In this document: positions 1 through 16,500 of the stretch, one piece after another | Layout: each line of letters begins with the position of its first letter | Numbering within the stretch: the stretch's first letter is position 1 | Source: Dehalococcoidia bacterium | Lineage (GTDB): Bacteria > Chloroflexota > Dehalococcoidia > Lucifugimonadales > JAGWBF01 | Reading direction: 5' to 3' | DNA: 64,000 bases | Assembly (NCBI GenBank): GCA_965197405.1 | Contig: OZ240206.1 | Location: forward strand, 3,275,096 to 3,339,095 | Program-made: the position numbers and the translations under genes | The notes under the pieces: model-generated | What the model was told of the DNA's origin: nothing | The model's database searches: none | What the model saw: the letters and a program-made list of their open reading frames with translations, nothing else

Positions 1-339
1 CACTCTACCACCGGATGCGTCACAGTCCTGTAGGGGGGAATAGATAGCGACGATACGTCCCTATCTCCCCTCCATGCTGTCTGGGGGGTACAAAATGGCA
101 TCAGCGGGCCGATTGCCGGGGTCCGCCGACCCCCAAATCACTCCTGTTTGAGCTACGAAACGGGGGTGACGTGTCGCCTGACCGGTCAGGGACAATTATG
201 GGAAGCTGCGCTAAAATACAGGACGAGTCTGATGACAACTTGATTGCACTTTGGGAACCCTGACGTGTCAGCCGATAGGGAGGGAACTAGCTATGGCTGA
301 ACCTGTCCGGCGTGTCCGCAGAGCTGATCGGGGCAGGAT

Positions 340-575
340 TTGGCGTGTCGGCGGCATCCGCGGCCCAGTTTGGTCCATCAGTTTTGGCGCGAAACGATGT
401 GGGGGAGGGCGACGCGATTTTGGGTGGGCGGGCAGAAACGGACATCCTGGGCCAGCCAGCTAGGAATTTGCGCCACATTCGGAGGAAATTAACGGGAACG
501 AGTGAACACTTTGAGTAAGGGCTGGTTCCGGCGAAAAGTGGATGAAATTGCAAAAGCGGGCCACCCCTGTAGAGG
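340..575 (-). repeat. Inverted copy of the non-coding M module (upstream region of the regulator family). It forms the left arm of a long inverted repeat around 582..1500.
   Basis: The reverse complement matches 1590-1865. For example, 500-531 GAGTGAACACTTTGAGTAAGGGCTGGTTCCGG matches the reverse complement of 1661-1690 CCGGAACGCACCCTTTCTAAAAGTGTTCGC. Shadow ORFs 251..463(+) and 1595..2128(-) both translate to GPVW..RCGGG..GHPGP. The repeat is imperfect and its extent is approximate. Confidence 0.6.
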
Positions 576-581
576 ATGGAA

Positions 582-1046
582 ATGAGTGACGGACGGGCAT
601 CGAGGGCCGACGACGATAGGCCCGACCTCAAGTGGGTCGTGGAGTGGCTGGTCGAGCGGGAAGGACAGCGCAAGACGGCGGCCCTCCTGGGTGTGAACCG
701 AAAGACGGTGGCGCTGGCCCTGCGCCGGGAGCGGTTGACGGGCAATATGGCCCTTGCCGTCCGGCGGCTCATGGCCAACCTGGACGACCCGGAGTGGGAG
801 AGGACGCCGCCGCTGGACAGGTTGGAGGCGAGGATACAGGTGGCGCTCGAAGCGGCGCACGAACTGGCGGCGCTGGTGGAGAGTCTGACGCAGCGCGTGG
901 AGGCCCTGGAGGCGGCACGGGAGCCCGAGGACGACGCTATCAGCCAGGAGTCGGCGGATGCGCCCGACGCTGAGGGGCGGGGTCTGCGTCTGTTCAACTG
1001 GAGGCGGAGGCGTCAGTCGCAGGGCGAGGAAAAGAGCGATGGATGA
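582..1046 (+). CDS. Small HTH plus coiled-coil regulator-like protein, a short paralogue of 29417..30268 and 53756..54595
   Basis: HTH-like KTAALLGVNRKTVALALRR, then a heptad-rich helix (LEARIQVALEAAHELAALVESLTQRVEALEAA). The start was moved to the second ATG (582), behind GAGGA. The stop overlaps the next start (ATGGATGA). The upstream TTGCAAAAG box resembles TTTGCAGAGGGAG upstream of the paralogues. Confidence 0.6.
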   Translation: MSDGRASRADDDRPDLKWVVEWLVEREGQRKTAALLGVNRKTVALALRRERLTGNMALAVRRLMANLDDPEWERTPPLDRLEARIQVALEAAHELAALVESLTQRVEALEAAREPEDDAISQESADAPDAEGRGLRLFNWRRRRQSQGEEKSDG

Positions 1047-1500
1047 GCCCGTCCGCTGGGTGACGAAGGCGGAGGCCGCTGAGGAGCTGGAGGTCTCCCT
1101 CTCGACTCTGGACCGGAAGATCAGGCAGGGAGAGGTGGAGGTCCGCAGGGAGGGCCGCCGGGTGTTCGTGCGGATGGCGGGGGAGTACATCACCGACGAG
1201 GAGCTGCTGCGCCGGACGATCAACAGGGAGCATGAGCTTGAGGGGACCGTGCGGGAGTTGGAGCAGAGCGTATCCGAGTGGAAGCTGAGAGCGTCCGAGT
1301 TGGAGCGGGAGCGAGACGAGGCCAGGGAGGCCGCAGCCACTGCCAGAGGGCCGTATGTGAAGCTTGAGTTGGAGCACCAGAGGGAGGTCTCCGACCACGA
1401 GGTGACGACGTTAGCGCTCAACGTCTTCCGCGTGGCCGCCATTGTGCTGCTCGTGCTGCTGGTCGGCAGCGTCCTCCTGTGGTGGTTTGTGCTGAGGTAG
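1039..1500 (+). CDS. MerR/excisionase-type HTH protein with a coiled coil and a C-terminal membrane helix
   Basis: WVTKAEAAEELEVSLSTLDRKIRQGEVEV is a typical excisionase/MerR-like HTH. Central ELE/ERE heptads are present. The C-terminal VAAIVLLVLLVGSVLLWWFVL is hydrophobic. ATG 1039 overlaps the upstream stop. Confidence 0.6.
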   Translation: MDEPVRWVTKAEAAEELEVSLSTLDRKIRQGEVEVRREGRRVFVRMAGEYITDEELLRRTINREHELEGTVRELEQSVSEWKLRASELERERDEAREAAATARGPYVKLELEHQREVSDHEVTTLALNVFRVAAIVLLVLLVGSVLLWWFVLR

Positions 1501-1544
1501 GGGAAGCGCTGTCGGCCCGTCACCTCGGTCTCCGTCTCCGTCTT

Positions 1545-1865
1545 CAAGGGACGTAACGCACCCCCACTTCAATCGCCTTTTCGGGGGCCTAATGTCATTG
1601 GGACCCCGCTCCAACCGGACGGCTGATGTCATTCCCCACGTTTGGCGATGTCATTGCCGTCCGGAACGCACCCTTTCTAAAAGTGTTCGCTGGATTTGTC
1701 CGACATACCCCCGAAATCAGCCCGTTTGCATAGCTGAGTGGCCCCGGATGTCCGCTTCTCCCCCAGGTCCCATTTTCGTGTACTCCCCCTCCACATCGAC
1801 CGGCGGCCAACCGGATGGGCCAAACGGGGCCGCCGTCCCCACCGGTTCGGAGCCCCGGGAGACCG
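1545..1865 (+). repeat. M module, direct copy; right arm of the inverted repeat
   Basis: 1545-1700 aligns with 30352-30507 at high identity (GGGACGTnAnGCACCCCCACTTCAATCGC...AATGTCATTGGGA...GATGTCATTCCCCACGTTTGGCGATGTCATTGCCGTCCGGAACGCA...AAAGTGTTC). 1590-1865 is the reverse complement of 340-575. Confidence 0.75.
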
Positions 1866-3014
1866 GCATCGAGACCCCGATCCACCGCCAACAGACCCCG
1901 CCGCATGGTTGACGTGTCACCATGTCCCGGCCCCGGTGAGCGCTGCGTCAGCGCCCCTTCCGAGGGACTGGGAGCGCCGTTTCCGCCGCGTCCTGCACCC
2001 CCACGTCCATCCCCTTCCGCGCCCCGTTTTCCGTCGCACCCGCCCTTTTGCCGCCGCGTCATGCCCACCACCATCCAACGAGTTTCGTTGGATTTGGCCT
2101 GAACGCGCCCTTTCAACGAAGTGTTCACTTTTCTTCTCCTGTAGGGCGCGATTTACCCCTGCCCCAGCTATGAAATTGCCCCTGCGTCCACTTCGCCGTC
2201 AAACGCAATACCCTGTACAGCCCCTCCACATGGTCCGCACCCCTCCATGTCGGCGGAGCCTGGAAGGTGCATCACACGCGATGCACTTTATGAGGGACAT
2301 GCGCCACAGCCCGACCAGATGCAGATATCGCCCGGGCATACTCCGCAGGGGCAGGCCCTGGTTATCCCGACCCGGTGATCACCGGCGCCGCCGCCGGGAC
2401 CACCACCCCCACATCCTTTAGGGCTCCCATAGGGGAAGTGAACCCTCCCCCAAATCGCCTCTGCGGTCTCCCGGACTGCTCGCTCCCATTTAGCTCCGGG
2501 CCGGGCTGGGACGTGGTTTCATACCTGGCGACCGCCCCGACTTCCCTTTTGGGAACTGACGCCCAAATCGGGTGAACCAGCCCTTACCAGAAAGTGCTCG
2601 CAACAACGGCCCCGACTTCCCTATTTTCGTCCTGTTTCAGGTTCAAAACATCCCCCGATTTCCCTTTTGGGAACTGACGCCATTCCTTGTACACGGGTAT
2701 GACATCAGATCCGGCTCCTGAAGGGGAAATTGACGGCCACCCAACAGCCTGCGCAGCTACGGATGGCCCTGCGGAGGGTCGATTTGGCCCGACATGGCCG
2801 ATATGCGGCCGGTACCACCCGCTTGCCGACTTCCCTTTTGGGAACTGGACCCCCAATTTTGAGGAATCAGACCTTACGCGACGCTCCTCTGAAGACCCCG
2901 GCTCTCCCGCTCCAAACTGCTCGCTCCGGTTTAGCAGACTGCCCCGTTCACCCCGATTTCAGCTACGAAACCGCCCGAGCTGCAACTTCACGATTCACCC
3001 AATCTCCTGTACAC
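1683..3014 (+). repeat. Gene-free array of diverged ~100-nt units (GTGTTCRC / TCCTGTAGRGG / hairpin / CAGCTACGAAAC / CTCCTGTACAC)
   Basis: The best units are 2121-2220 and a half unit at 2960-3014, with degenerate units at 1683-1784 and 2470-2700. The same ordered motifs with the same ~100-nt span occur at 30490-30590, 31021-31120 and 54729-54829. ORFs on the track here are low-complexity P/R/G shadows. Confidence 0.65.
2535..2852 (+). repeat. Three and a half copies of a palindromic box, CCCGACTTCCCTTTTGGGAACTGAC
   Basis: Copies lie at 2535-2563, 2652-2681 and 2824-2852, with a half copy at 2610-2640. The core TTCCC-TTTT-GGGAA is a perfect 5-bp dyad. Confidence 0.7.
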
Positions 3015-3097
3015 GGGTGAGACCCCGCCATGTCCCCTGGAATCTCGCGCCCCAAGAGGGGGTTTGTCCGCGTGCTCTGCGCCAGCGCCGGAGACGC

Positions 3098-3146
3098 TTG
3101 ACAGGGGTGTCGGAAATGGCGCAATATCTTGGTAAGACTCGATAAC
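3098..3146 (+). promoter_or_regulatory. Candidate promoter plus GGTAAGACTCGATAAC box upstream of the RHH-PIN operon
   Basis: TTGACA (3098-3103), an 18-nt spacer, then CAATAT (3122-3127). The box at 3131-3146 recurs upstream of rec1 (5702-5717) and partly upstream of the second RHH gene (33687-33704). Confidence 0.35.
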
Positions 3147-3159
3147 AAGGGGTTTGAAC

Positions 3160-3417
3160 ATGCCGCGAACGACCAAGACCATTACTTTCTCGTTGCCGCC
3201 GGAGATGGCCGACAGGGTGGACGAGGTGATGAAGCAGCAGGGACGGTCCCGGAGCGAATTCCTCCGGGAGGCCGTGCTCCGCTACATCGAGGAGTGCGAG
3301 TGGAGACAACTGCTCCAGTACGGAGAGGCGAAGGCCAGGGAGAAGGGCATCGGTCCCGATGACGTGTCCCGGCTGGTGGAAGAGTACCGGGCTGAGGTTG
3401 GCTCGGTCCGTGCATGA
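3160..3417 (+). CDS. Ribbon-helix-helix (CopG/MetJ-type) antitoxin
   Basis: MPRTTKTITFSLPPEMADRVDEVMKQQGRSRSEFLREAVLRYI is a classic RHH beta-strand plus two helices. Its stop overlaps the PIN start (ATGA). The start is taken at ATG 3160 rather than TTG 3154. Confidence 0.8.
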   Translation: MPRTTKTITFSLPPEMADRVDEVMKQQGRSRSEFLREAVLRYIEECEWRQLLQYGEAKAREKGIGPDDVSRLVEEYRAEVGSVRA

Positions 3418-3821
3418 GAGTCGTCCTCGACACCAACGTCATAGTCTCCGGCCTGAACTTCCCCGGCAATGAGCGCCTGGTGCTCGAACTGGCTCTCAGG
3501 GGACGGTTCGAGCTTTATGTGTCCACCTTCATCCTGGAGGAAGCTGCCGGGGTGCTGGGGCGTAAGTTCGATTGGGACGCGGAACGCTCGTCCCAGGCTC
3601 TCAGCGCGCTTGGGAATGCCGCGACGGTCATCTACCCCCGTAGACTCCCGGAGGTGATCGAGGGGGGCCACGCCGACAACCGCATCCTGGAGTGTGCCGT
3701 GGAGGCTTCCGCCGATTACCTGGTCACCGGCGACCGGCGGCACCTGTTGCCGCTTGGGACACACGAGGGAGTGAGAATCCTCAACGCTCCCCGCTTCCTG
3801 TCGGCGCTGGGAGAAGGATGA
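3414..3821 (+). CDS. PIN-domain toxin (VapC-like ribonuclease)
   Basis: MRVVLDTNVIVSG (first acidic residue). It continues ...LEEA..., ...ADNRILECAVEASADYLVTGDRRHLL, the PIN acidic quartet pattern. It is 135 aa and coupled to the RHH gene. Confidence 0.8.
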   Translation: MRVVLDTNVIVSGLNFPGNERLVLELALRGRFELYVSTFILEEAAGVLGRKFDWDAERSSQALSALGNAATVIYPRRLPEVIEGGHADNRILECAVEASADYLVTGDRRHLLPLGTHEGVRILNAPRFLSALGEG

Positions 3822-3879
3822 CACCAGACTGTATCTGGCCGACTTCGTTCGTTGAAGAATTTAGCAAGGAGGTGTTTTG

Positions 3880-5013
3880 ATGTCGCGAAAGTCATCAAAG
3901 CGCACCCCACATGACGAAGCGGTGGCAATCATCGAGCAACTCGTGACCAAGAACCTGGGAGGAAACCTCGAAGCCACGGCGTCATGTAACCAGTGCAGAG
4001 AAGAGCTTACGATAAACCTCGTAGCAGGAGGTTCCAGCGTCAGCCGAGAGAAGCTCGTGGGAACGGTGCGCCCCGACATCAGCCTGCTCGATGAGAATGG
4101 CGAGCCTGTCAGGTTCATAGAAGTGGTGGACAGCCATGCTCCCGAGGGGACGGTCCATGAGCAGGCCCTGCAAGAAGGCACTGAGGTGGTAGAAATCCAT
4201 CTAAGGGCCGAAAGGGAGTTCACAGGGAGAAGAAGGAACAAGGCTCTGGACGCGTCCCTGACAGCCAAAGCGAGATTAGAGGAGCTCGCCGCTGGACGGA
4301 TAGTTCTAGACGCCCACAACCTTCTTTGCCGCAGACCCAAGTGCAGGGAGTGTGACGCACCGCTACCGCTGAGAACGGTAACGGTCAGCACGAAGGACTG
4401 CTGGAAATGCGGCCAGAACGTGAACGTCGCTACGGGAGACAAAGACGGTGGGAGCCTTGAGCAAGACTATTTCACCACCGAGGAGATCGAATTCGCTCGG
4501 GAGAATGGGGTAACTCTGGAGCGCAGATTCAGCTCCACCGTTGGAGGAAAGTACCTGGCTAACGTGTGCACCGGGTGCGATCAAATCCAAGGGAACTGGT
4601 TCCTGTACATGGACCCGTATCACGACAGGTTCAATCTACACAAGGCGGAGCGACAGGTATACGGACCCTGCGACCGGTGCGCCACCCGCTACTGTATGAG
4701 TCATGGGGAGTACATGGACTATAGAGGCAGCAGCCAATGCCCGTCCTGCCTGGAAGAAGCAGAAAGAGTCATGTGCCCGAACAACCCGGACAGAGAATGC
4801 TTCTATCCCCAAAGGTGTGAAGAGGGCGGGTGCTACTTCCTGAACCGGGAACAACAGAGACGAGAGCAGCTAGAGCAGGCGGAACAGCAGCAACGGATAG
4901 AGCAGGAACGTCGCGAGCAGCAGCAACGGGAACGGCAAGAGCAGCGCGAACAAGAGCAGCGCCAATGGGCAGAGCTTCAGGAATGGTTCGACCAACGTCA
5001 AGGGCCGAGTTGA
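3880..5013 (+). CDS. Cys-rich multi-zinc-ribbon protein with an N-terminal CoiA/PD-(D/E)xK-like segment and a Q/E/R-rich tail
   Basis: CNQC..., then VRPDISLLDENGEPVRFIEVVDSH (a D...E-x-x nuclease-like core). Several CxxC pairs are present (CRRPKCREC, CWKCG, CTGCD, CDRC, CPSC). The C-terminal ~50 aa read REQQRREQLEQAEQQQRIEQERREQQQRERQEQREQEQRQ. AAGGAGG lies 10 nt upstream of ATG 3880. Confidence 0.6.
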   Translation: MSRKSSKRTPHDEAVAIIEQLVTKNLGGNLEATASCNQCREELTINLVAGGSSVSREKLVGTVRPDISLLDENGEPVRFIEVVDSHAPEGTVHEQALQEGTEVVEIHLRAEREFTGRRRNKALDASLTAKARLEELAAGRIVLDAHNLLCRRPKCRECDAPLPLRTVTVSTKDCWKCGQNVNVATGDKDGGSLEQDYFTTEEIEFARENGVTLERRFSSTVGGKYLANVCTGCDQIQGNWFLYMDPYHDRFNLHKAERQVYGPCDRCATRYCMSHGEYMDYRGSSQCPSCLEEAERVMCPNNPDRECFYPQRCEEGGCYFLNREQQRREQLEQAEQQQRIEQERREQQQRERQEQREQEQRQWAELQEWFDQRQGPS

Positions 5014-5014
5014 C

Positions 5015-5641
5015 ATGATTGACATTGACGGTCTTATGGGGAGCCTGGCGGACTCGCGGAAGGTGTTTCATTCGGAAGCAGACTTCCAGCACGCCCTGGC
5101 ATGGCATATGCACCAGGCCATGCCGGAAAGCCAGGTCAGGTTAGAGGTCGATGTCATGCAGGTAGAACACCAGAGGAGGTTCCTAGACATCTGGCTTCCG
5201 TTGGAAGGGATCGCTATCGAATTGAAGTACAAGACTCGGGGATTGGAACTGGAGCAAGACGACGAGCCCTTTGTCCTCCGCAACCAAAGCGCACAAGACC
5301 AAGGGCGGTATGACTTTCTCCTCGACATTCAGAGACTTGAGCTTATGCGCTCTAATCTGGAGCAATGCAAGGCTGCATATGCTGTGTTGCTGACCAACGA
5401 CTCTTCATACTGGAAGGTTCCCACGCAAAGAGACACGGTGGACGCCGACTTTCGTGTACACGAGGGGCGGGCGGTTTCGGGAGCATTGGCGTGGACGGCC
5501 CGGGCGAGTTCGGGAACGGTCCGGGGCCGAGAATCGCCGATACAGATACGGGACTCTTATCGTCTTCGCTGGCGGGAGTATTCCAACTTCCCTGGGAAGT
5601 CATACGGCAGCTTCCGGTATCTTGCGGTTTCAGTGGAGTGA
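5015..5641 (+). CDS. PD-(D/E)xK nuclease-fold protein
   Basis: RRFLDIWLPLEGIAIELKYKT gives a D...E-x-K motif in the usual beta-strand context. The ATG lies 1 nt after the upstream TGA (TGACATG), so the two genes are coupled. Confidence 0.6.
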   Translation: MIDIDGLMGSLADSRKVFHSEADFQHALAWHMHQAMPESQVRLEVDVMQVEHQRRFLDIWLPLEGIAIELKYKTRGLELEQDDEPFVLRNQSAQDQGRYDFLLDIQRLELMRSNLEQCKAAYAVLLTNDSSYWKVPTQRDTVDADFRVHEGRAVSGALAWTARASSGTVRGRESPIQIRDSYRLRWREYSNFPGKSYGSFRYLAVSVE

Positions 5642-5737
5642 TAGAGGCAGCGGCCGACAGCCGTTCCTTGACAATGGCCCCCTGGGTGAGTCATGATACT
5701 GAGTAAGACTCGGTAATTACAGGCAATGGAGGACAGC

Positions 5738-7390
5738 ATGAAGAAGCATCTACAGCCCCTAACGCCGGCGGCCCTCTACGCCAGGGTGTCCAGCGACCGG
5801 CAGGACGTGGACCTGTCCGTGTCCGCCCAGCTACGGGCGCTCAAGGAATACGCCAGGGCCAACGACTACTCCGTGGCCCGCGAGTACGTGGACGAGGCCG
5901 AGAGCGGCCGCGTCGCCGACAGGCCCCAGTTCAGGGAGATGATCGAGGAGGGCGGCAAGCCGAAGGCCCCCTTCGACGTGATCCTCGTATGGAAATTCAG
6001 CCGCTTCACCCGCAAGCGCGAGCACGCCGTAGCCTTCAAGTCCCAGCTGCGGCGCAAGGGCATCCGGGTGGTGTCCATCACCGAGCAGGCCGAGGACAAC
6101 GCCACCGGCAGGCTGCTTGAGGGAATCATCGAGAGCGTGGACGAATATTACAGCGAGAATTTGGCGCAGGAGGTCGTCCGGGGGATGAGGGAGGCCGCTT
6201 CCAGGGGCTTCTTCCTCGGCTCCAACGCCCCCTTCGGCTACAGGAAGATCAAGGTCAGCGACGGGGCGAAGGAGCGCCCCACCCTTGAGGTTGACCCGGC
6301 CACAGCCCCCGTGGTGCGGGAGCTATTCGAGAAGTCCCTGCGGGGCAGCGGCCTCAAGGAGCTATGCAAGGAGCTGAACGACCAGGGCATCACCAACAGG
6401 GGCAAGCGCTGGTACAAGGGAACGCTCCACTACGTGCTGCGAAACGAGGCGTACACCGGCACCGCCGTATGGGGCAAGAGCAGCAAGGGCCAGGAAGCCG
6501 CCGACCCTGTGCGTGTTGAGGGAGCGTGGCCCGCGCTGGTGTCGAGAGAGCTGTTCGAGGACGTGCAGCAGGCGATGAGCGAGCGCGCCCCGAAGGTGCA
6601 GAGGCCCGGTAGAGTTGGGAGCAAGTTCCTGCTGAGCGGGTTGCTCAAGTGCGGGGTGTGCGGCAGGCCCTACTCGGCCCAGGGAGCCAAGAGCGGCCAG
6701 TTCGCCTACTACATCTGCGGGACCCTGTTCAGGGAGGGAGCGGGGACGTGCAGCGCCCGCTACCTGAACGCCCCGAAGCTGGAGACGTTCGTGGTGGAGA
6801 AGATCAGGGAGCGTATCCTCAACGAGGAGACCATCGTGGCCCTCGTGACGCTGGTGGCCGAGGAGATCGACGCGATGGCCGGCGAGCTGTCCGGCAGGCT
6901 GAAGGTCGTCGAGGCGGAGCTATCCGACGTGAGGAAGCGTCTTGAGAAGCTCTACGAGGCCATTGAGACGAGCGAGTTGACCCTGGAGGTCCTGTCGCCC
7001 CGCATCATGTCTCTGAGGCACCGTGAGGAGCAGCTGGAGGCTGCGAGAGAGGACGCCGAGACCCAGATTGAGCAGAGGAGAGTGGAGCTGCCCAACACCG
7101 AGGAGGTAGCGCGGTACGTGGCTGACTTCCGGGACTTCCTGAAGGATGGGACGATCCCCGAGCGGAAGGCGCTCATCCGCAACTTCGTTGAGGGCATCAA
7201 GGTGACTGGTGACGAGGCTACGCTGACGTACACGGTCCCCATGCCGAGCGACGGAGCGATCTCGGAATCGGCCTCGGTTCTTGATTTCGTCAAGTCCAGC
7301 CCACCACCGCTTACGGTAGATACCGCCATCTTCGAGATGTCGCTCGGCAGCCTGTCGGCGCACCGAGGTCTGTCGATTCCTGTAGTGTGA
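5738..7390 (+). CDS. Large serine recombinase (rec1)
   Basis: The resolvase catalytic N-terminus reads AALYARVSSDRQDVDLSVSAQ. A recombinase domain follows, then a zinc ribbon (CGVCGRPY...YYICG...C) and a long coiled coil. The start is taken at ATG 5738, just after GGAGGA. It is paralogous to 33937..35619. Confidence 0.9.
   Translation: MKKHLQPLTPAALYARVSSDRQDVDLSVSAQLRALKEYARANDYSVAREYVDEAESGRVADRPQFREMIEEGGKPKAPFDVILVWKFSRFTRKREHAVAFKSQLRRKGIRVVSITEQAEDNATGRLLEGIIESVDEYYSENLAQEVVRGMREAASRGFFLGSNAPFGYRKIKVSDGAKERPTLEVDPATAPVVRELFEKSLRGSGLKELCKELNDQGITNRGKRWYKGTLHYVLRNEAYTGTAVWGKSSKGQEAADPVRVEGAWPALVSRELFEDVQQAMSERAPKVQRPGRVGSKFLLSGLLKCGVCGRPYSAQGAKSGQFAYYICGTLFREGAGTCSARYLNAPKLETFVVEKIRERILNEETIVALVTLVAEEIDAMAGELSGRLKVVEAELSDVRKRLEKLYEAIETSELTLEVLSPRIMSLRHREEQLEAAREDAETQIEQRRVELPNTEEVARYVADFRDFLKDGTIPERKALIRNFVEGIKVTGDEATLTYTVPMPSDGAISESASVLDFVKSSPPPLTVDTAIFEMSLGSLSAHRGLSIPVV
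7296..7330 (+). other. att-like core inside the rec1 3' end
   Basis: CCACCACCGCTTACGGTAGATACC aligns codon for codon with rec2 (CCACCAAACTTGACGGTAGACAGA) and rec3 (GGACTTCCGTTTACGGAAGATACC). Similarity between the three genes stops just downstream. Confidence 0.45.
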
Positions 7391-7432
7391 TGCGTGGGGG
7401 TGGAGGAACGCAAGGTTAGAGAGGGCCTACGC

Positions 7433-9808
7433 CTACGCCCCCTCCCCCTTCTCCATCCGGTAGCCGACGCGAGGCTCAGTGAGAATGTATGTGGGGTTGT
7501 TGGCGTCGTCGCCCAGCTTGCGGCGGAGCTGCTTGGCGGCGGTGCGCACCCGCCGCGAGTCGCCCGACCTCCGCAGGCCCCAGACCCGTCGCAGCAGCCG
7601 GTCGTAGGTCAACACGCGACCGGCGTTGACCGAAAGCTCGAAGAGCAGTCCGTACTCGATGGCGGTCAGCCGCACGGGACGCCCGGCCAGTGTCACGCGA
7701 CGCTCGGCGTAGTCGACGGCCAGCTCCCCCAGCACGAAGGGTTCCGACGGCTCGGCCCATTCGGGCGCTTCCCGCTTGCGCAGGGCCGCCTTGATCCTGG
7801 CCACAAGCTCCATCGGCGAGAAGGGCTTGACCACGTAATCGTCGGCCCCATTCGCGAAGGCCCTGGCGATGGTCTCTTCCTGGCCGTAGGCTGACAGGAA
7901 GATAACCGGAACGTCGGCCATGTCGAGGATGCCCCGCATCAGCTCGATGCCGTCGGTCCCCGGCAGCATCAGGTCCAGCAGCACCAGGTGGGGGTCGTTC
8001 GCCTCCACCAGGCTGAGCGCCTCCTCCGGGTCTCCGGTCAGGACCGGGGCGTAGCCCGCATTCGTGAGCGCGTCCCGGACGTGCCTGAGCGTCTGCGGGT
8101 CGTCGTCCACCGCGAGGATGCGTTCCCGTTCCCTCTCCGACCGCCCGGAGCGCACCGGGAGATTGGCGGCCCCGATACCGGCGTCCTGGGCCACCGGAAT
8201 GGTGAAGGTGAACCGCGCCCCCAGGCCCGGCCCGTCGCTCTCGGCCCATATCCGGCCCCCGTGGGCCTCCACTATCCCCTTGCAGATGGCGAGGCCCAGG
8301 CCGGACCCCGCGATGTCCCGTCCCCGGTCCTCGCCGTCGATGCGGGAGAACTTCCGAAACAGGTGCGGCAGCCGCTCGGCGGCGATCCCTCTGCCCTCGT
8401 CCGTGACCGAGACGGCCACGTGGTAGCCCTCCCGCACGGCGGACACCCCTATGGCCGACGCCTCGTGGGAGTGCCGGGCCGCGTTGGAGAGCAGGTTGTT
8501 CAGCACCTGGATGATGCGCCTCCCATCCGCCATGACCAGTGGCAACTCCGGCGAGAGGTCGATGCGGAGGTTGTTCCTGCCCCCTCCGCTCTGGAACCTG
8601 CTCCTGGCCTCGTCCACCAGGCTCGCCACCTCCGCCGGCGCGGGGGCGACCGGCAGCTCGCCCGTCTCGATGCGCGCCACGTCCAGCAGGTCGCCGATCA
8701 GGTCGCGCATGTAGTCGGCCTGCTCGCCGATGATGCGGAAGAACTGGAGCATCTCGGCGGGGTCCAGGTCGGACGCCGCCTCCGTCAGCGTGGCGGCGGA
8801 GCCCTTGATGGCGGCCAGCGGCGTCCTCAACTCGTGGCTCACCATGCCCAGGAACTCGGCCCGCAGCCGCTCCAGCTCCTCCAGCGGCGTCATGTCCTGT
8901 AGGGTGACGACCACTGAAACGACCTCGCCCCCCTCCGAGCGGATGGGCGTGGCGTTGACCAGGGTGGTGACGCTCCCCCCGTCGGGGACCTCGATGACGA
9001 TCTCCTCGGCGCGCACCGTCTCGCCCGTGCTCAGCGCCTGGGCCAGAGGGAACTCCTCCAGGGAGACCTCCCGGCCGTCGGCCCGCCGGAAGGTCAGCAT
9101 GTCGAGGAGCTGCTCCGCAGAGCCATCGGGCATGTGCAGGCCGCTGACGATCCTCCTGGCCTCCCGGTTGACCGACGTCACGCCGCCCGTCTTCGCGTCG
9201 AACACCAGGACGCCCACCGGCGAGGTGTCGATCAGAGTCTCCATGTCGGCCCTGGCCCGCTGCTCGTCGCGGTGCCTGCGGGCGTTGGCGATGACCAGCG
9301 CCGCCTGGGAGGCGAACATCACCAGGGTCTCCTCGTCTTCGGGGGTGAACTCCAGATCCTTCTCGCCCACGTAGAAGGCCCCGACGCTCTCCCCAAGGTG
9401 GCGGATGGGCGCGGCAAGAAAGGGCAGCGGGGAGCTCACCGCCATCGGCGGGCGGAACTCGGGCAGGCCCAACTCCCTGACGTAGCTGTGGAAGTCCCGC
9501 AGCCGCAGCGGTTCACTGATGCTGCTCAGGTACTCGAAGAACAGCATCCCGTTGGGAAATTCGGCGAACCGCCGGCTCTCCTCGGGAGTCAGCCCGGAAT
9601 AGAGGAAGTCCTGTACCTGTCCCGATTCGTTTAGGAGGGTGATGACGCCGTAGCGCGCCCCGGTCAGGGAGCAGGCTGAGTCCAGCACCCCCTGGAGCAC
9701 CGTGTCGAAGTCGAGGCTCTCGTTGATGCGCAGGCTGGCCTGGCTGAGGCGGGCCAGCCGGTCCCGCAGCTCCGCTATCTCCCGCTGAGGCTCGTCTGCC
9801 TGTTCCAT
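7433..9808 (-). CDS. Hybrid sensor histidine kinase fused to a complete OmpR-type response regulator (GAF-PAS-HisKA-HATPase-REC-wHTH)
   Basis: H-box SHELRTPLAAI. N/G boxes NLLSNAARHS, DEGRGI and GSGLGLAI. The receiver reads ILAVDDDPQ...LVLLDLMLPG...VVKPF. The winged helix reads LTAIEYGLLFEL...LRRKLGDD...ILTEPRVGYRM. The start is taken at ATG 9808, behind GAGGGGGGAA. Confidence 0.85.
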   Translation of the reverse strand: MEQADEPQREIAELRDRLARLSQASLRINESLDFDTVLQGVLDSACSLTGARYGVITLLNESGQVQDFLYSGLTPEESRRFAEFPNGMLFFEYLSSISEPLRLRDFHSYVRELGLPEFRPPMAVSSPLPFLAAPIRHLGESVGAFYVGEKDLEFTPEDEETLVMFASQAALVIANARRHRDEQRARADMETLIDTSPVGVLVFDAKTGGVTSVNREARRIVSGLHMPDGSAEQLLDMLTFRRADGREVSLEEFPLAQALSTGETVRAEEIVIEVPDGGSVTTLVNATPIRSEGGEVVSVVVTLQDMTPLEELERLRAEFLGMVSHELRTPLAAIKGSAATLTEAASDLDPAEMLQFFRIIGEQADYMRDLIGDLLDVARIETGELPVAPAPAEVASLVDEARSRFQSGGGRNNLRIDLSPELPLVMADGRRIIQVLNNLLSNAARHSHEASAIGVSAVREGYHVAVSVTDEGRGIAAERLPHLFRKFSRIDGEDRGRDIAGSGLGLAICKGIVEAHGGRIWAESDGPGLGARFTFTIPVAQDAGIGAANLPVRSGRSERERERILAVDDDPQTLRHVRDALTNAGYAPVLTGDPEEALSLVEANDPHLVLLDLMLPGTDGIELMRGILDMADVPVIFLSAYGQEETIARAFANGADDYVVKPFSPMELVARIKAALRKREAPEWAEPSEPFVLGELAVDYAERRVTLAGRPVRLTAIEYGLLFELSVNAGRVLTYDRLLRRVWGLRRSGDSRRVRTAAKQLRRKLGDDANNPTYILTEPRVGYRMEKGEGA

Positions 9809-10121
9809 TTCCCCCCTCGAACCGGGCTGCCGACGGCCATGAGCCGCCGCCGCGCCGGATGCGGGATTCGGGACGCGAACCGCCCGGCCAGCCCCAATTA
9901 TAGCTGGCCCGGGCAAAACTCACAACAGATTCGGTTGGAAAAGTCTTGACTCTCACAGATACCTCACAGACATTTTGGTAAAATGCGGTGCATGGCTGCC
10001 CATTTTTCGGGAGATATTCACTTGGCACTCGACAGGCCGATAGACGGAGTGGAGAAAGTGGCCGCACCGGCCGCGTTCGAGACTGCCTTCCGTTGCCTAA
10101 CTAGCACAGACGTTCACCCCC

Positions 10122-10318
10122 CTGACAAGGGTATGTATTTCATTCGGGACTTACCCAGTTGAACGTGAGACCCATATAGTGGAGTAGGCTTTGTCAGATG
10201 CAAGATCGCTCTCCAATATCCACTACCAGACCCATTCCGTCATTCCGGCGAAGGCCGGAATCCAGGGGTGGCGGGGCTGGTTCGTAGCTATAATCTCGTT
10301 CTTACATACCCTTGTCAG
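10122..10318. mobile_element. MITE-like element (197 bp) with 16-bp perfect terminal inverted repeats
   Basis: CTGACAAGGGTATGTA (10122-10137) pairs with TACATACCCTTGTCAG (10303-10318). The interior is AT-richer and carries the hairpin CGTCATTCCGGCGAAGGCCGGAATCCAG (10239-10266). Both flanks are C-runs. Confidence 0.7.
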
Positions 10319-10584
10319 CCCCCCCCGATTTTCCCTTCGCTCTAGCACCCTCGCCCCCTCCGGCTCATACCGGCAGGCCCGGCCCTCTCCCATCGCCGCT
10401 CCCTCTGAGCGCGCGCCCGAAACCTTCAGAGTCCTCGAAGGACGCTTGCCCGGGCGCTTGCCGCGTGCCAGCGTCCGATGCCTTCAACCATGCACCGCAC
10501 CGCGCCCTCCGCGCCGCCATTGGCTGACGCCTGTGGACCGGACTGGGGGCGTCCCATACCTCCGCACAAGGACGAGGAGGGGCC

Positions 10585-13500
10585 ATGACTCGCACCGATA
10601 GACGACGATTCCCCGTCCTGCTGGCCGTCATAGCGGCCCTGGCCCTGGCGATGGCCATGCCCTTCTCCATGGTCCATGCCCAGTCGGTCTCGGAGGGCGT
10701 CGACGACTGTCCCCGCAACACCACCACCACTTGCGAGGTGGAGGTGGGCGGCTCCGTCATGGGCACGATCGGCAACGACCTCGACACCGACTGGTTCAGG
10801 GTAGAGTTGAAGGCGGGCCGGACCTACCGGATCGACATGAAGGGCGCGATTCTCGTCGCCCCCGACACCCTCCTGGACCGCGAGCTCACCCTGCGCCTCC
10901 CGCAGATCAACACGATCCGTGGGAGGAATGGCGGTCAGCTTGTCAACACGTTTGGCCGCGACGAATCAAGCGCCCACCACCTGTTCCGTGTGACGTTTCA
11001 CGCCCATGCCGATGGCGCCCATTACATCGCGGCGAGCGGCGAGTCGTTCGAGAAGGGCGGCTACAAGCTGCGCGTCATCGACATCACGCGGGACGACGAC
11101 GCCACGCCGGTCGCCGTGACTGTCCAGTTCGGCGCGGCCAGCTACACCGCCACCGAGGGCGGGACCGCCGCCACGGTCACCGTCAATCTGAGCGCCGACC
11201 CGGAGCGTTCCGTGACAATCCCCGTCACCGCCGCAGGCGCAAACGGGGCCGGGAGCGGCGACTACACCCTGTCGGAGACGTCGGTGACCATCGACAGCGG
11301 CGAAACCTCGGCCACCTTCATCGTCACCGCCACCGACGACAGCGTGGACGACGACGGCGAGAGCGTGAACCTGAGCTTCGGCACTCTGCCCGACGCGGTG
11401 AGCCGCGGGGCGCTGGCCACCGCGTCGGTGAGCCTGGTCGACGACGACGGCGCCGACACCACCGCCCCGACGGTGGACTCGGCGACTGTGTCCCAGGACG
11501 GCACCAGCATCGACGTCGTCTTCGACGAGGACCTGGACGCCACCGGCTCGGAGCCCGCGGCGTCGGCGTTCGGGGTCACCGTCGACGGAGGCACTGCGGT
11601 CAACCCGGCGAGCGTGGCGATCAGTGACGACACGGTCACCCTGACCATGGCCTCCGCCGACGCCATCGCGGCGGGCGCGGCGGTCACCGTCGCCTACGAC
11701 AAGCCGACTTCCAACGCCCTGGCCGACGCCGCGAGCAACGAGGTCGAGTCGTTCACCGGCACGGACGCGATTGCCGCGTCCAACCGTCCGGCTGCTCCGG
11801 GCAAGCCGCAGAATGTTCAGCTCGTCTTTGAGGAGACGACGAGCGGCTATGACGCGAAGCTCTCGTGGGATGCGCCCGACGATCTCGGCGGCGGCACATT
11901 CCAAAGTTACAACTGGTTCCTGACCAAATCGGTAGGCGATGGCAACCTAGTCATCGAGTCGGACGACAGTCAGCAGACTGCGCCTGCGGCTGACTCGCCG
12001 ATCAGGGAGAGCCTGCCCTCGCCGGAGATTGGCGATGTCTACAAACTAACTGTCACGGTGTGGAACGAGGCCGCCTCCGCCTCCGCTGCGCGCAGTGCAA
12101 TCTTCGTGCACGGCGAAACGGGGGTGCCCGAGGTCACGCAGGCTGCAATTAGAAGTGACGGGCTGCTGCTTGCCTGGAGTGCGCCCGAGATCGCTTCAAG
12201 CCTGGATGTCACCGGCTACCAGGCCCGCTACAAGCTGACCGGCGCGGCCGACGTCGACGACAGCTGGACGACGGTTGCGGCCGGCGCCACCAGCCCGTAC
12301 ACAATCACGGGCCTCGCGGACAGCGCCGGCTACAACGTGCGGATGCGGGCGGTCATTGAATGGAACAGCGGCGACTATTACGGCGACTGGTCGGAAGCGA
12401 AGCGTGCGGACAACCCCTCGATCGTCGCCGGCGGGGTGGAAGTGAGCTCAGACCCGGATAGCGACAACACCTACGGACGAGGCGAGACCATCGAGTTCAC
12501 GGTCGAATTCAACGAGGCGGTGACAGTCACCGGCGAGCCGGAGTTCGAGTTCTGCCTTGGGGCTGTTGACGCTTCCTGTACGGAGGGCACGGACCCGCCA
12601 GCGCGGCGGCGGGCCGCGCACAGCTCCGGCGACGGCACTGACAAGCTGGTGTTCAGCTATGTCGTGGGCCTGAGATTCACCGACCTCGACACGGACGGCA
12701 TCCGGATCGGCGACAGCGCCATCAGGCTCGGCGACGACGAAAAGATCGTCAGCGCCGACACTGAAACTGCGGCCTATCTCAGCCATGCGGCGCTCGGCAT
12801 CCAGACGGGCCACAGGGTGGACGACTCCAACGTGGCTGACACGACGGCGCCGTCGGTGTCGTCGGCGAAGGTGTCGGAGGACGGTATGACCATCCTTATC
12901 GTCTTCGACCAGGCGCTGGACAGCAGCTCGACAGTGGAGACCGGGGAGTTCGCGGTGACGGTGGGCGCGGCGTTGCCGAGGAAACCGTTGGGCGCGGCGC
13001 TGAGCGGCGCCGATACGGTGACACTGACCATCCACGACCCCCTCAACGTCACCCCGACCACGGCGATTGCGGCGGGCGAGACGGTGAGTGTGGCGTACAC
13101 CGCGCCGGCCACGGGCGGCCTGCAGGACAACAGCAGCAACAAGGCAGCGGGGTTCACCGAGAACGTGATCAACCGGCCCGCCAAGCCCACCGGGTTGACG
13201 CTGACCGACGGCCACGAAAAGCTGACAGCGTCGTGGACGGCGCCCACTGCGACAGGCGGCAGCGCCATCACCCGCTACGACGTGGAGTGGAAGACCGCCG
13301 CCCAGACCTGGGCCGAGGCCGCCACCGCCGGGCAGTCCGCAACCGCCGCGGCCGATGCCACCACCCATGAGATCACCGGCCTGACCAACGACACCGAGTA
13401 CACGGTGCGGGTGCGGGCGGTGAACGGCGCGGGGAACGGCCCGTGGAGCACGGAGGAGTCGGAAACGCCGGCAGTTCCCGCCAACAAGAATGCCGACCTT

Positions 13501-16500
13501 GCCGACCTGAGCATTGAGGGCGTCACCGTGGAGGGCTTTGACAAGGACACCCTCTCCTACGAGGTCGTGGTCGTCCTCCCGGCCCGCTCAGGCGTCAACT
13601 TTGTCACCATCGAGACTACGACGGTGAACGACCAGGCCACGGTCGGTTACCTCCCCGTCGCCACCGACGCCAGCGTCGCCAGCCCCGGCTACCAGGTGAC
13701 CGTGCTCCTTAGGACGCCGACCACGTACAGGATCACGGTCACCTCGGCGGACGGGAGCGTGACCAAGGAGTACGCGATCGAGATCACGCGCTACACGCTG
13801 CCCGGCGCGCCGCGCAGGCTGGACGCGAGGGCCAGCCACCGGCAGGTCGAGCTCTCCTGGAACGATCCGGACAACAGCGACATCGAGAGCTACCAGTACC
13901 GGGTGAGCGGCGACGGCGGCAACACCTGGGACCCGGACTGGACCGAGATCAACGGCAGCGGCGCCTCGACCACCGGCCTTACGCTGACCGACCTGGACCA
14001 CCGCACGGAGTACAAGTTTGAGGTGCGGGCGGTGGTTCAGGGAGCCGCGGGCGCGGCTGCGTCGGTCACCGCCACGCCGGACGACGACTTTCCCAACGAC
14101 ACCACCACCACCGGGGAGTTGGACGTGGGCGGCTCGGTCACGGGCAACATCGAATTCGGAGATGACGTGGACTGGTTCAAGGTCGTGCTGGAGGCGGGCA
14201 CGCGATACCAAATCGACCTTGAGGGCGCGGATACCGGCCGCGGCACCCTGGTAGACCCGGCTATAGAATTCCTCGCCGATTCGATGGGCGACGGGATTGC
14301 AGATACAGAAGACTCCGATAATGGCGTGGGCAAGAACGCCCGGGCTATCTACACGCCAACCGCGGCCGGCGCCTACTACGTGAGTGTATCGTCTGAGACC
14401 TCAGCGCCGGGCACCTACACGGTGTCGGTGATCGTGCTGGGCGCGAACGGCGCCTCGGAGGCCGACACGGACTTTCCCGACACGACCTCCACCACCGGCC
14501 GGGTCGAGGTCGGGGCCTCGGCCACGGGCAACATCCACACCGGTGGCAACAGGGACGCGTTCCGCGTCGACCTGAACGCAGGCAAGGTCTACCAGGTCGA
14601 CCTGGAGGGAGCGGGGACCAACAGGGGCAGCCTGGATGACCCGCAACTGTTCGCGATCGCCGATTCGACTGGTTCTTCGATATCCGGGGGGGACAACAAT
14701 GACATCAGCAGCAGCAACCTCAACAGCCGGGTGACCTTCACGCCGACCGACGCCGGCAGCTACTACGTGTTGGTCAGGGGCAACGGCACGAGCACCGGCA
14801 CCTACACGCTGTCGGTGCGCGACGTCACGCCGCCCGACGCTCCGGGCGGCCTGGACGCGCAGGCCAGCTACCGGCAGGTCGACCTCTCCTGGAACGATCC
14901 GGACAACAGCGACATCGACAGCTACCAGTACCGGGTGAGCGACGACGGCGGCAACACCTGGGACCCGGACTGGACCGAGATCGACGGCAGCGACGCCTCG
15001 ACCACCGGCCTTACGCTGACCGACCTGGACCACCGCACGGCGTACAGGTTTGAGGTGCGGGTGATGGTTCAGGGAGCCGCGGGCGCGGCTGCGTCGGTCG
15101 CCGCCACGCCGGCGGCGACCACCGTGCCCCACGACTGGGACCTGCGGCCGCCGGGCGTGGCCACGGGGAAGACTTTCCGCCTGCTGATCGTCACCTCCGA
15201 CAGGCGCAACGGTCAATCGGGGGATGTCGACGATTACAACGACCACGTGCAGGATGCAGCGGCTTCGGGCCATTCGGACATCCAAGACTACAGTTCGGAG
15301 TTCCGGGCGCTGGTCGGGACCAAGGGCGGCGCCTCGCCCAGGGACAACACCCACTCGAATAAGAACAGCGACGGGCGGGGCGAGCAGATCTGGTGGCTGA
15401 ACGGCCCCAGGGCCGCCAACGACTACGACGATTTCTACGACGGCTCCTGGGACCACACCAACCCGGTGAGGCTCGAATCGGGCAACTCCCGTACCTTCTA
15501 CGACGTGGACGACAATGACGAGCAATTTTATAAGCGGATAATCTGGACGGGCGCCACGGCCGAGGGGGCTCGCTCCGGCAGCAGGCACCTGGGAAGCGAC
15601 GACGGTGAAGGCTATGTCGGCGTTCCCTACTTCGAGAACGGCCCGTTGCGACTTGGTGGCCGGTGGGTAACAACCAACAGATCCCTCCGTTTGTACGGTC
15701 TCTCTCCGGTCTTCCTCGTCGAGGCGCCGGACGCTCCCTACGCGACGACGGCCGCCATCACGACGGACCCGGCCAACGGGACCGACTACCGGACCGGCGA
15801 GGTGGTCAAGGCCACTGTGACCTTCAGCGAGGACGTGACGGTGACGGGGACGCCGCAGTTGCCGCTGCAAATCGGCGGCGATGAGCGCGACGCTGACTAC
15901 GCGGCCGGCGACAGCAGCTCCACCGTGCTGTCGTTCTCATACGTTGTCACCGACGATGACACCGACCGGAACGGCATCTCCATCGACGCCTTCGCCCTGA
16001 AGCTCAACGGAGGCACCATCAAGCGCACGGACACCGACGTGGACGCGGCGCTGACCCATACACGCGTCCTCGACGACGATGACCACAAGGTGAACCTGCC
16101 GCCGCTCATCACCGGCGTCGAGGTGACGTCCACCCCGCAGGCGGCCAACGACACCTACGGGCTGGGGGAGGACATCGAGATCACCGTCACCTTCAGCGAG
16201 GCGGTGAACGTCACCGGAGACGTCGAGTTCGGGATCAGCGCCGGCGGGCCGAAGCAGGCGCGGCTCAAGAGCGGCAGCGGCACCACCGAACTGGTGTTCG
16301 CCTACAAGGTGCAGGCCGCCGACGAGGACGACGACGGCATCTGGATCGGCAACCACAACACCGACCACCCGACCTTCGACCTCCAGGCCGGCCAGTCCGT
16401 CGTCGGCGTCGACTCGGGACGCCCCGCCTTGCTGGAGCACAGCGTGGAAGGCACCCAGGGCGGCCACAAGGTGGACGGCGACAATACAGCAGCCGACGCC

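Follow-up and report, generated by a model that had tools for sequence, protein, structure and literature searches.

Organization of the locus

We analyzed a 64,000-nt stretch of DNA from a Dehalococcoidia bacterium (GCA_965197405.1, contig OZ240206.1, positions 3,275,096-3,339,095 of the forward strand), referred to here as the window, in which two adjacent genes for nuclease-like proteins, gene 1 and gene 2, lie between an RHH-PIN gene pair and a recombinase gene. In the list of open reading frames (ORFs) of the window these form a run of five co-oriented genes: RHH, PIN, gene 1, gene 2 and recombinase (Table 1). A preliminary description, made from the sequence alone, had taken gene 1 and gene 2 to be one two-gene defence cassette. 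Judging from related genomes, they are not a conserved two-gene system; they are separate single-gene modules. We consider it fairly probable that both are independent, separately mobile, solo endonuclease-like modules that were stacked as cargo in the serine-recombinase module.

The two ORFs are present as first described, with 1 nt between them: the TGA of gene 1 (5011-5013) is followed by one C and then by the gene 2 ATG at 5015. A strong Shine-Dalgarno sequence, AAGGAGG, lies 5 nt 5' of the gene 1 ATG at 3880, and the two genes are probably co-transcribed. Pfam searches agreed with the RHH-PIN and recombinase assignments of the preliminary description. The RHH and PIN genes overlap by 4 nt, the arrangement of a type II toxin-antitoxin (TA) pair, and the Resolvase, Recombinase and Zn_ribbon_recom matches of the recombinase were all over the Pfam cut-offs, as in a large serine recombinase; its CcrB-like and XisF-like matches in NCBIfam were all under cut-off.

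RNA-library contigs (four runs, three studies, contigs only) stem from relatives and could reflect carried-over DNA; they are no evidence of an operon or of expression of the present copy, nor do they give transcription levels. They gave heavy cover over the recombinase gene alone, from many 90-99% relatives; gene 1 was met by one 228-nt contig at 4022-4241 (19 differences) and the end of gene 2 by one 311-nt contig at 5372-5676 (29 differences). The contigs over the recombinase were labelled sponge metagenome and others and had high summed depth, and the cargo genes were covered far less.

Table 1. Coordinates of the mobile module, its genes and the parts of gene 1 in the window.
Feature	Position	Strand	Basis
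Conserved mobile module (RHH, PIN, variable cargo slot, gene 2, serine recombinase)	3090..7320	+	blastn of window 1-14000 against related loci
RHH (CopG-type) antitoxin gene	3154..3417	+	Pfam RHH_1 9.4e-11; NCBIfam RelB-like antitoxin 3.3e-9, under cut-off
PIN-domain toxin gene	3414..3821	+	Pfam PIN_3 1.3e-17; TIGR00305 3.9e-10, over cut-off
Gene 1, CoiA-superfamily nuclease-like protein, 377 aa	3880..5013 (alternative start 3877)	+	ORF, Shine-Dalgarno, relatives, hhalign
Gene 1 aa 1-150, PD-(D/E)xK-type core: H11, inserted zinc knuckle C36/C39, D66, E81, D84, H86	3880..4329	+	
Gene 1 aa 150-320, cysteine-rich zinc-ribbon region	4327..4839	+	Invariant cysteines
Gene 1 aa 321-377, Q/E/R-rich helical tail	4840..5010	+	Composition, predicted helix
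Gene 2, solo PD-(D/E)xK-type endonuclease-like protein, 208 aa, nameless family	5015..5641	+	
Large serine recombinase, 554 aa	5726..7390	+	Pfam Resolvase 2.6e-32, Recombinase 1.1e-24, Zn_ribbon_recom 4e-15

Co-occurrence of gene 1 and gene 2

An obligate two-gene system would show conserved co-occurrence and adjacency, and this check had been set beforehand as one that could refute the cassette. We scanned one genome per species, which gave 525 gene 2 loci in 185,579 species genomes and 36 gene 1 loci, all of the latter in Chloroflexota except for one metagenome-assembled genome (MAG) of Latescibacteria. The census covered the best 80 of the 525 gene 2 loci and the 34 full-length loci among the 36 of gene 1; individual loci are given L numbers. 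Gene 1 lay directly upstream of gene 2 in 7/80 (L002, L003, L004, L006, L007, L009 and L014), all close Chloroflexota relatives, and 73/80 gene 2 loci had no gene 1. Seen from the other side, an intact gene 2 accompanied gene 1 in 7/34 loci, a 28-codon remnant of it in 3, and no gene 2 lay within 6 kb in 24, so that 27/34 gene 1 loci had no intact gene 2. On these counts the two-gene cassette of the preliminary description fails.

Each gene can also be lost or replaced without the other. At the three loci with a remnant (L083, L090 and L091) gene 2 is reduced to its first 28 codons, and gene 1 and the downstream recombinase gene are intact. Six loci carry the RHH-PIN...gene 2 module with gene 1 replaced or absent, and five of the six have the recombinase too. 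The remaining 67/80 gene 2 loci have no gene 1, RHH or PIN, with a distant recombinase-like match elsewhere in only two. At the 24 gene 1 loci without gene 2, housekeeping genes predominate among the neighbours and a few TA, HNH, Fic or methyltransferase genes occur as well; no other conserved partner of either gene emerged among the neighbours in gene 1 and gene 2 loci.

The two genes can differ in descent even where they stand together. Compared with the window, L014 has 91% identity in gene 1 and just 78% in gene 2, and it shares with L008 a 267-aa gene 3' of gene 2; we conclude that the gene 2 side was probably exchanged independently of gene 1. A prediction of the gene 1-gene 2 complex (score 0.00, mark 0.32) was not used either way.

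A module with a variable cargo slot

The left homology border of the module fell at 3090-3132 in most loci (~60 bp 5' of the RHH gene) and at 2918 in L003 and L016. The right border, at 7296-7320 in L002, L003, L005, L014 and L016 and at 7229 in L004, falls within the last ~30 codons of the recombinase gene, and RNA-library contigs from relatives diverge at 7306. Between PIN and gene 2 the content of related loci varies. The slot is empty in L011, L012 and L018, where gene 2 comes directly after PIN with gaps of 38-41 bp. Because the synteny of L018 with the window extends over both module flanks, the presence or absence of gene 1 amounts to an indel at one site. The slot holds an REase-ARP gene (4.7e-41) in L005, a DUF4238-like gene in L008, and in L016 a DUF4238-like gene, an REase-ARP/PDDEXK_13 gene and a gene for a 328-aa protein. 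The cargo position that had been proposed is thus supported by other restriction-endonuclease-like genes occupying the slot in relatives, and the alignments indicate that an RHH-PIN...recombinase module with a variable slot circulates among Dehalococcoidia/Chloroflexota genomes.

In its fixed backbone of a TA pair and a recombinase, and in a single slot that differs between close relatives, the module resembles the cargo hotspots of integrative elements. It differs from them in that the window has no tRNA, and no attachment site tied to one; in that the cargo genes have no match to named defence systems; and in being bounded here by homology borders only, the right one inside the 3' end of the recombinase gene. 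A repeat search revealed no terminal repeats on either side of gene 1 or of the module, and there were no Rfam families in window 1-12000. Variable cargo slots are reportedly described in the P2/P4 prophage hotspots of Rousset et al. 2022, and the serine-recombinase islands of Dehalococcoides are said to be treated by McMurdie et al. 2011; we name both as comparators.

Two further variations were seen at the 3' side of the module. L008 (8684-9487) and L014 (8684-9484) have a second variable slot, between gene 2 and the recombinase, with a 266-267-aa protein for which we found no Pfam or PADLOC match. In L003, L005 and L014 the first recombinase gene is met at its 3' end by another serine-recombinase gene, 39-54% identical and convergent with it.

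Gene 2 belongs to a large family that catalogues do not name

The D...ExK core noted in the preliminary description (FLDIWLP at aa 56, IAIELKYK at aa 66) is strictly conserved. Residues E21, D58, E69 and K71 are invariant both in 39 close relatives (alignment A1) and in 39 diverse ones (alignment A7; 34-71% identity, including an archaeal MAG and plasmids of cultured bacteria), and they make up the catalytic set of PD-(D/E)xK enzymes, with E in the first helix, D in strand 2 and ExK in strand 3. S20, D23, Q25, N128, W160, R172 and Y182 are likewise invariant in both alignments, which places two invariant aromatic residues (W160 and Y182) and two nearly invariant ones (W186 and F200) in the C-terminal ~75 aa, a part with no assigned fold. 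The AlphaFold2 model of gene 2 had a predicted local distance difference test (pLDDT) value of 80.7 and a predicted template-modelling score of 0.82. Compared with PDB by Foldseek it matched nothing at E <= 0.001, and its fold matches to PD-(D/E)xK proteins were weak; for this reason the nuclease call is based mainly on the invariant motif.

Of 2599 candidates from a word-indexed search, 2446 protein clusters passed E <= 0.001. A precomputed Pfam domain was absent from all 120 clusters listed, and a cluster look-up of close relatives gave no names. Gene 2 itself matched no family in Pfam, PADLOC-DB v2.0.0, NCBIfam or PHROGs, its best matches being far under the cut-offs. With 0 PADLOC families at E <= 1 for gene 2, and none for gene 1 either, neither protein matches a named defence system, in line with the preliminary description, which did not recognize the combination as one. 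The best 80 of the 525 genome loci are spread over Chloroflexota, Acidobacteriota, Alpha- and Gammaproteobacteria, Nitrospinota, Nitrospirae, Calditrichaeota, Planctomycetes, Spirochaetia, Elusimicrobia, Deinococcota, Acidimicrobiia, Dadabacteria, Thermodesulfobacteriota and one Bathyarchaeia MAG, and identity across them is still 44-57%. By sequence comparison, then, gene 2 founds a large, strongly conserved nuclease-like family that has no name in Pfam, PADLOC, NCBIfam or PHROG.

The family includes 76 clusters of long forms (>= 365 aa). One of them, P0433 (445 aa), consists of two gene 2 modules in tandem (46% and 35% identical), the second of which is partly degenerate, with Gln for E21 and Arg for K71. 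From this tandem fusion we argue that the single-module protein works as a dimer. Another 41 proteins of 405-469 aa from Bacillota (P0415-P0456 minus P0433) are tandem-like by length only. In 23 long forms that were scanned, the added domains were DUF7662 (3), DUF7669 (4, one weak), DUF429 (2), HATPase_c_4 (2, one also with DUF4062), HARE-HTH (1), Uma2 (1) and PAD_porph (1), and these fusions lead us to argue that the gene 2 module is a portable effector domain. As a possible fused partner in the long forms we considered the 328-aa protein of L016 and rejected it, since BLASTP against P0433 and P0415 gave no similarity.

Gene 2 could be conceived as an accessory or directionality factor of the serine recombinase, in the way that XisH, the fdxN element excision factor (PDB 2okf), goes with XisF. 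We regard this as very unlikely. XisH has no sequence match to gene 2 (no Pfam XisH match at E <= 1), the fold match to it is no better than that to restriction enzymes, and the catalytic residues of gene 2 are invariant. Gene 2 also occurs mostly without a recombinase, none of this kind lying alongside in 67/80 loci, and the recombinase gene stays intact where gene 2 has been deleted (L083, L090 and L091).

Surroundings of gene 2 outside the module

We examined 129 immediate neighbour proteins in the 67 gene 2 loci outside the RHH-PIN module. Housekeeping neighbours included aspartyl-tRNA synthetase, dihydroxy-acid dehydratase, lumazine synthase, ribulose-phosphate epimerase and HflX, and mobile or other neighbours included tyrosine integrases, a transposase, AHJR-like, PDDEXK_4, DUF4238, DUF4143-ATPase, FRG, HEPN, Phd and SNF2 proteins. 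No DNA methyltransferase was found among the 129 (nor in the module of the window), and the adjacent methyltransferase of a classical restriction-modification pair is thus missing; in some loci methyltransferases lie 3-7 kb from gene 2. Gene 2 differs from solitary restriction-type PD-(D/E)xK endonucleases (type II folds, e.g. EcoRV, SwaI and BamHI; functionally, type IV enzymes) in this respect, as well as in having no sequence match to named families and in its unusually high conservation across phyla, at ~50% identity.

At E <= 1e-8, 18/129 neighbours matched PADLOC, and removal of 4 ankyrin or MacB-type permease look-alikes left 14 proteins in 13 loci. Among the defence neighbours were UzuA, AbiEii, DrmD, Mokosh-like, PDC-S01, S11, S15 and S26.

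Gene 2 homologues were also present in 15 records of plasmids of cultured bacteria, where they are annotated as 'hypothetical protein' or 'putative nuclease'. On a plasmid of Peptoclostridium acidaminophilum the homologue lies in a prophage between the terminase large subunit gene and the portal gene, and in a Paracoccus plasmid prophage it follows the portal, capsid-protease and DUF2190 genes; both positions are in the head module.

Such positions raise the alternative that gene 2, and perhaps gene 1, is a selfish, free-standing homing-type endonuclease that cuts empty sites and has no part in defence. Both genes are found as single-gene insertions among housekeeping genes, as in L040, L046 and L061, where gene 2 lies between aspartyl-tRNA synthetase and amidohydrolase genes. 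The terminase-portal position in one prophage, the two gene 2 copies in some genomes (L013/L015; L007/L009) and the existence of a tandem-fused form would fit as well. Nevertheless, we hold this explanation to be unlikely, because gene 2 is rare in viruses (0/50,697 phage records and 8 loci in 2.9 million viral contigs), no sign of an intron or intein setting was noticed, and the fusions to sensor-type and DNA-binding domains, together with adjoining defence genes in 13/67 loci, fit defence better.

Two recurrent neighbours of gene 2 were noted in their own right. A UzuA homologue (PADLOC Uzume, E 2e-48 to 6e-54) immediately precedes a gene 2 homologue in the same orientation, with gaps of 56-83 bp, in three MAGs (L024 7133-7939, L025 7132-7941 and L057 5485-6294). 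Each of these MAGs represents a different phylum, and one is archaeal; UzuA and gene 2 may be a recurring two-gene block. A family of 235-370 aa with a nuclease-like 'LIELK' motif flanks gene 2 in 5/80 loci, being located just downstream of it in L022, L029, L037 and L051; the fifth is L016 (6945-7931). The three members scanned (L016, L022 and L029) had a faint similarity to PDC-S11 (E 0.003-0.006), and a strong PDC-S11 member (E 4e-152) flanks gene 2 in L079 (6797-7888).

Gene 1 is a distant relative of CoiA

Gene 1 contains 18 cysteines and six CxxC pairs, at aa 36, 155, 174, 230, 264 and 287, where at least five had been described; six pairs were reached in 0/10000 shuffles of the protein. 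The tail, thought at first to consist of Q, E and R only over ~50 aa, is real and helical and is nearly, not wholly, of that composition: the Q/E/R content is 92% over aa 323-362 and 79% over aa 321-372, and aa 319-373 are predicted as one long helix (pLDDT 83-90). Within the core, aa 63-86 read VRPDISLLDENGEPVRFIEVVDSH, and D66, E81, D84 and H86 are invariant in 41 relatives. Among 49 relatives, both close and distant, the cysteines C150, C155, C174, C177, C230, C233 and C264 do not vary. Those from aa 267 on and the Q/E/R helix belong to the close clade only; relatives that align only to ~aa 324 (L104-L107, L109 and L114) lack the tail, and some distant relatives end instead in Zn_ribbon_Top1.

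Relatives of gene 1 comprised 197 close clusters and, in an exhaustive search of representatives, 392 matches, most of them ~300 aa long, aligning to gene 1 ~30-250 and having ~60-90 additional N-terminal residues. CoiA_N (PF25164) was found in 17/27 distant homologues scanned, PF06054 (CoiA_nuc) at E <= 0.01 in 0/27, and the five closest had no domain at all. Gene 1 itself had no CoiA_N or CoiA_nuc match in Pfam at E <= 1, and a search with the PF06054 model across the whole genome from which the window comes had no match at E <= 10, though controls matched. More generally, gene 1 fell into no family of Pfam, PADLOC-DB v2.0.0, NCBIfam or PHROGs (best matches far under cut-offs) and had no match in a phage record collection.

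The link to CoiA appears in profile comparison. Using hhalign, we compared 49 gene 1 superfamily sequences (alignment A6) with 12 PF06054 proteins from Chloroflexota genomes (alignment A5) and obtained a probability of 96.0% and an E value of 4.6e-9 over 111 columns that run from CoiA_N through the core, a score that is partly due to CoiA_N, absent from gene 1 itself, which begins after that domain. The alignment pairs RPD of the gene 1 superfamily with IADV of CoiA_nuc, and IEVV with IEFQ. The CoiA invariants in A5 are a helix with E-x3-H-x3-K, a D and an E-x-Q; H11, D66 and E81 of gene 1 correspond to them and are all invariant, and D84, H86 and H93 are invariants specific to the gene 1 clade. 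In a protein atlas the neighbours of gene 1 were CoiA clusters (score 0.92), and two plasmid relatives carry a CoiA family annotation. With the gene 1 model, Foldseek returned a weak match to the influenza PA endonuclease (E 4.5e-3) and nothing in PDB at E <= 0.001.

The CoiA/PD-(D/E)xK-like segment of the preliminary description therefore holds at the level of the superfamily, and as an assignment to CoiA proper it does not, CoiA_N and the PF06054 match being absent. Both proteins can still be called nuclease-like, as had been proposed, from conserved motifs and weak fold matches to PD-(D/E)xK proteins. The profiles indicate that gene 1 is CoiA-like by ancestry yet not a CoiA, and is best described as a divergent, distant member of the CoiA nuclease superfamily. 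Its core matches CoiA_nuc profiles and keeps the core Asp, core Glu and helix His. It differs from the CoiA family in the missing domain and model match, in the residues considered below, in a zinc knuckle within the core, in ~170 additional aa of zinc ribbons and a Q/E/R coiled coil, and in its location on a mobile module in Chloroflexota, outside any competence regulon.

According to a preprint, CoiA of S. pneumoniae is a D-loop resolvase in natural transformation, and CoiA is confined to Bacillota (bioRxiv 10.1101/2024.02.06.579203). The superfamily link, together with the housekeeping neighbours at many loci, could suggest that one or both genes are housekeeping nucleases of repair or recombination, with gene 1 as a true CoiA-type D-loop resolvase. 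We find this highly improbable. The spread is patchy, with 525 loci for gene 2 in all species genomes scanned and 36 for gene 1, nearly all in Chloroflexota; the genomic positions are variable and include the mobile module; gene 1 has no CoiA_N and is not matched by the CoiA_nuc model; and, according to the preprint, CoiA is a protein of Bacillota only.

Independent cargo or a two-component system

Some observations weigh against the reading of gene 1 and gene 2 as independent, solo endonuclease-like modules. The 1-nt stop-start gap is conserved in L002, L003, L004, L007, L009 and L014 (L006, in which the gene 1 frame ends early, is the exception). The last ~66 bp of gene 1 are retained 5' of gene 2 in L005, where the gene 1 body has been replaced, and the gene 1-gene 2 block persists intact amid slightly different flanks in L006, L007 and L009. 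Gene 1 has K7 in place of the helix Glu of CoiA, V15 in place of the helix Lys and V83 in place of the Gln, and with an active site altered in this way it may not be an active nuclease. Many gene 2 and gene 1 loci have housekeeping flanks only. Finally, PADLOC matches amounted to 12/101 among ORFs 5-8 kb away versus 18/129 among immediate neighbours of gene 2, a control that comes from the same loci and is not a genome-wide background, so that these are raw counts with no enrichment claimed; adjacency to gene 2 is not special for defence genes.

The first three of these observations would be accounted for by a lineage-specific two-component system in which gene 1 is a zinc-ribbon DNA sensor or scaffold, gene 2 is the cutter and translational coupling fixes their ratio. 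This seems to us quite improbable, given that most loci have either gene alone (73/80 for gene 2 and 27/34 for gene 1), that gene 2 is deleted beside an intact gene 1 in L083, L090 and L091, that gene 2 comes straight after PIN in L011, L012 and L018, and that the identities of the two genes are discordant in L014.

If gene 1 and gene 2 are indeed independent cargo, gene 2, the more general of the two elements, would be a Mg-dependent DNA endonuclease that cuts on its own, as its invariant E/D/ExK suggests, and would act as a homodimer in the manner of the tandem P0433. Since no methyltransferase is linked to it, it would have to discriminate its target by DNA modification or foreignness, as type IV restriction enzymes do, and so spare self; the aromatic-rich, conserved C-terminal third is a candidate for the recognition part. 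Gene 1 would use its zinc ribbons to bind DNA and its coiled-coil tail to oligomerise, and its substrate, if it cuts, may be branched or foreign DNA. We regard gene 2 as probably a restriction-like enzyme that is dimeric, and a part in defence would be plausible for both genes.

A bolder proposal goes further, and we offer it as a tentative one: that gene 2 represents a family of self-sufficient, dimeric, single-gene defences, missed by the catalogues and hopping between phyla; that the module is a nuclease-stacking hotspot; and that gene 1, another such cargo, is a CoiA-derived nuclease repurposed from recombination to defence. If this were true, islands, plasmids and prophages would carry the gene 2 family from phylum to phylum, and its members would act against foreign or modified DNA.

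The failure of the proposed two-gene system spares effort on a pair that appears to be an accident of stacking. The gene 2 family, in turn, is big, well conserved and nameless, and offers a tractable candidate for a single-gene defence or a selfish endonuclease, with its clear catalytic motif, a tandem fusion that occurs naturally, and fused versions that carry DNA-binding or sensor domains. The RHH-PIN...recombinase module is a compact natural hotspot that could be mined for further cargo in the poorly studied Chloroflexota.

Other features of the window

To the left of the module, two small overlapping ORFs on the + strand (576-1046 and 958-1500) encode helix-turn-helix (HTH)/coiled-coil proteins (HTH_17 1.1e-4, under cut-off). 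Since both are also conserved 5' of the module in L003, L014 and L018, the mobile element may reach left of 3090. Between them and the module, the non-coding segment 2475-3023 contains 3-4 direct copies of a ~32-nt unit (2531-2568, 2649-2686 and 2820-2857, with a partial copy at 2606-2625). The same segment has 20-27-nt repeat pairs 320-441 nt apart, and a longer segment is seemingly duplicated. To the right of the module, a single ORF of 3691 aa (10585-21660, + strand) has a signal-like N-terminus and numerous repeated segments, Ig/FN3-like and others, and is probably a giant surface protein.

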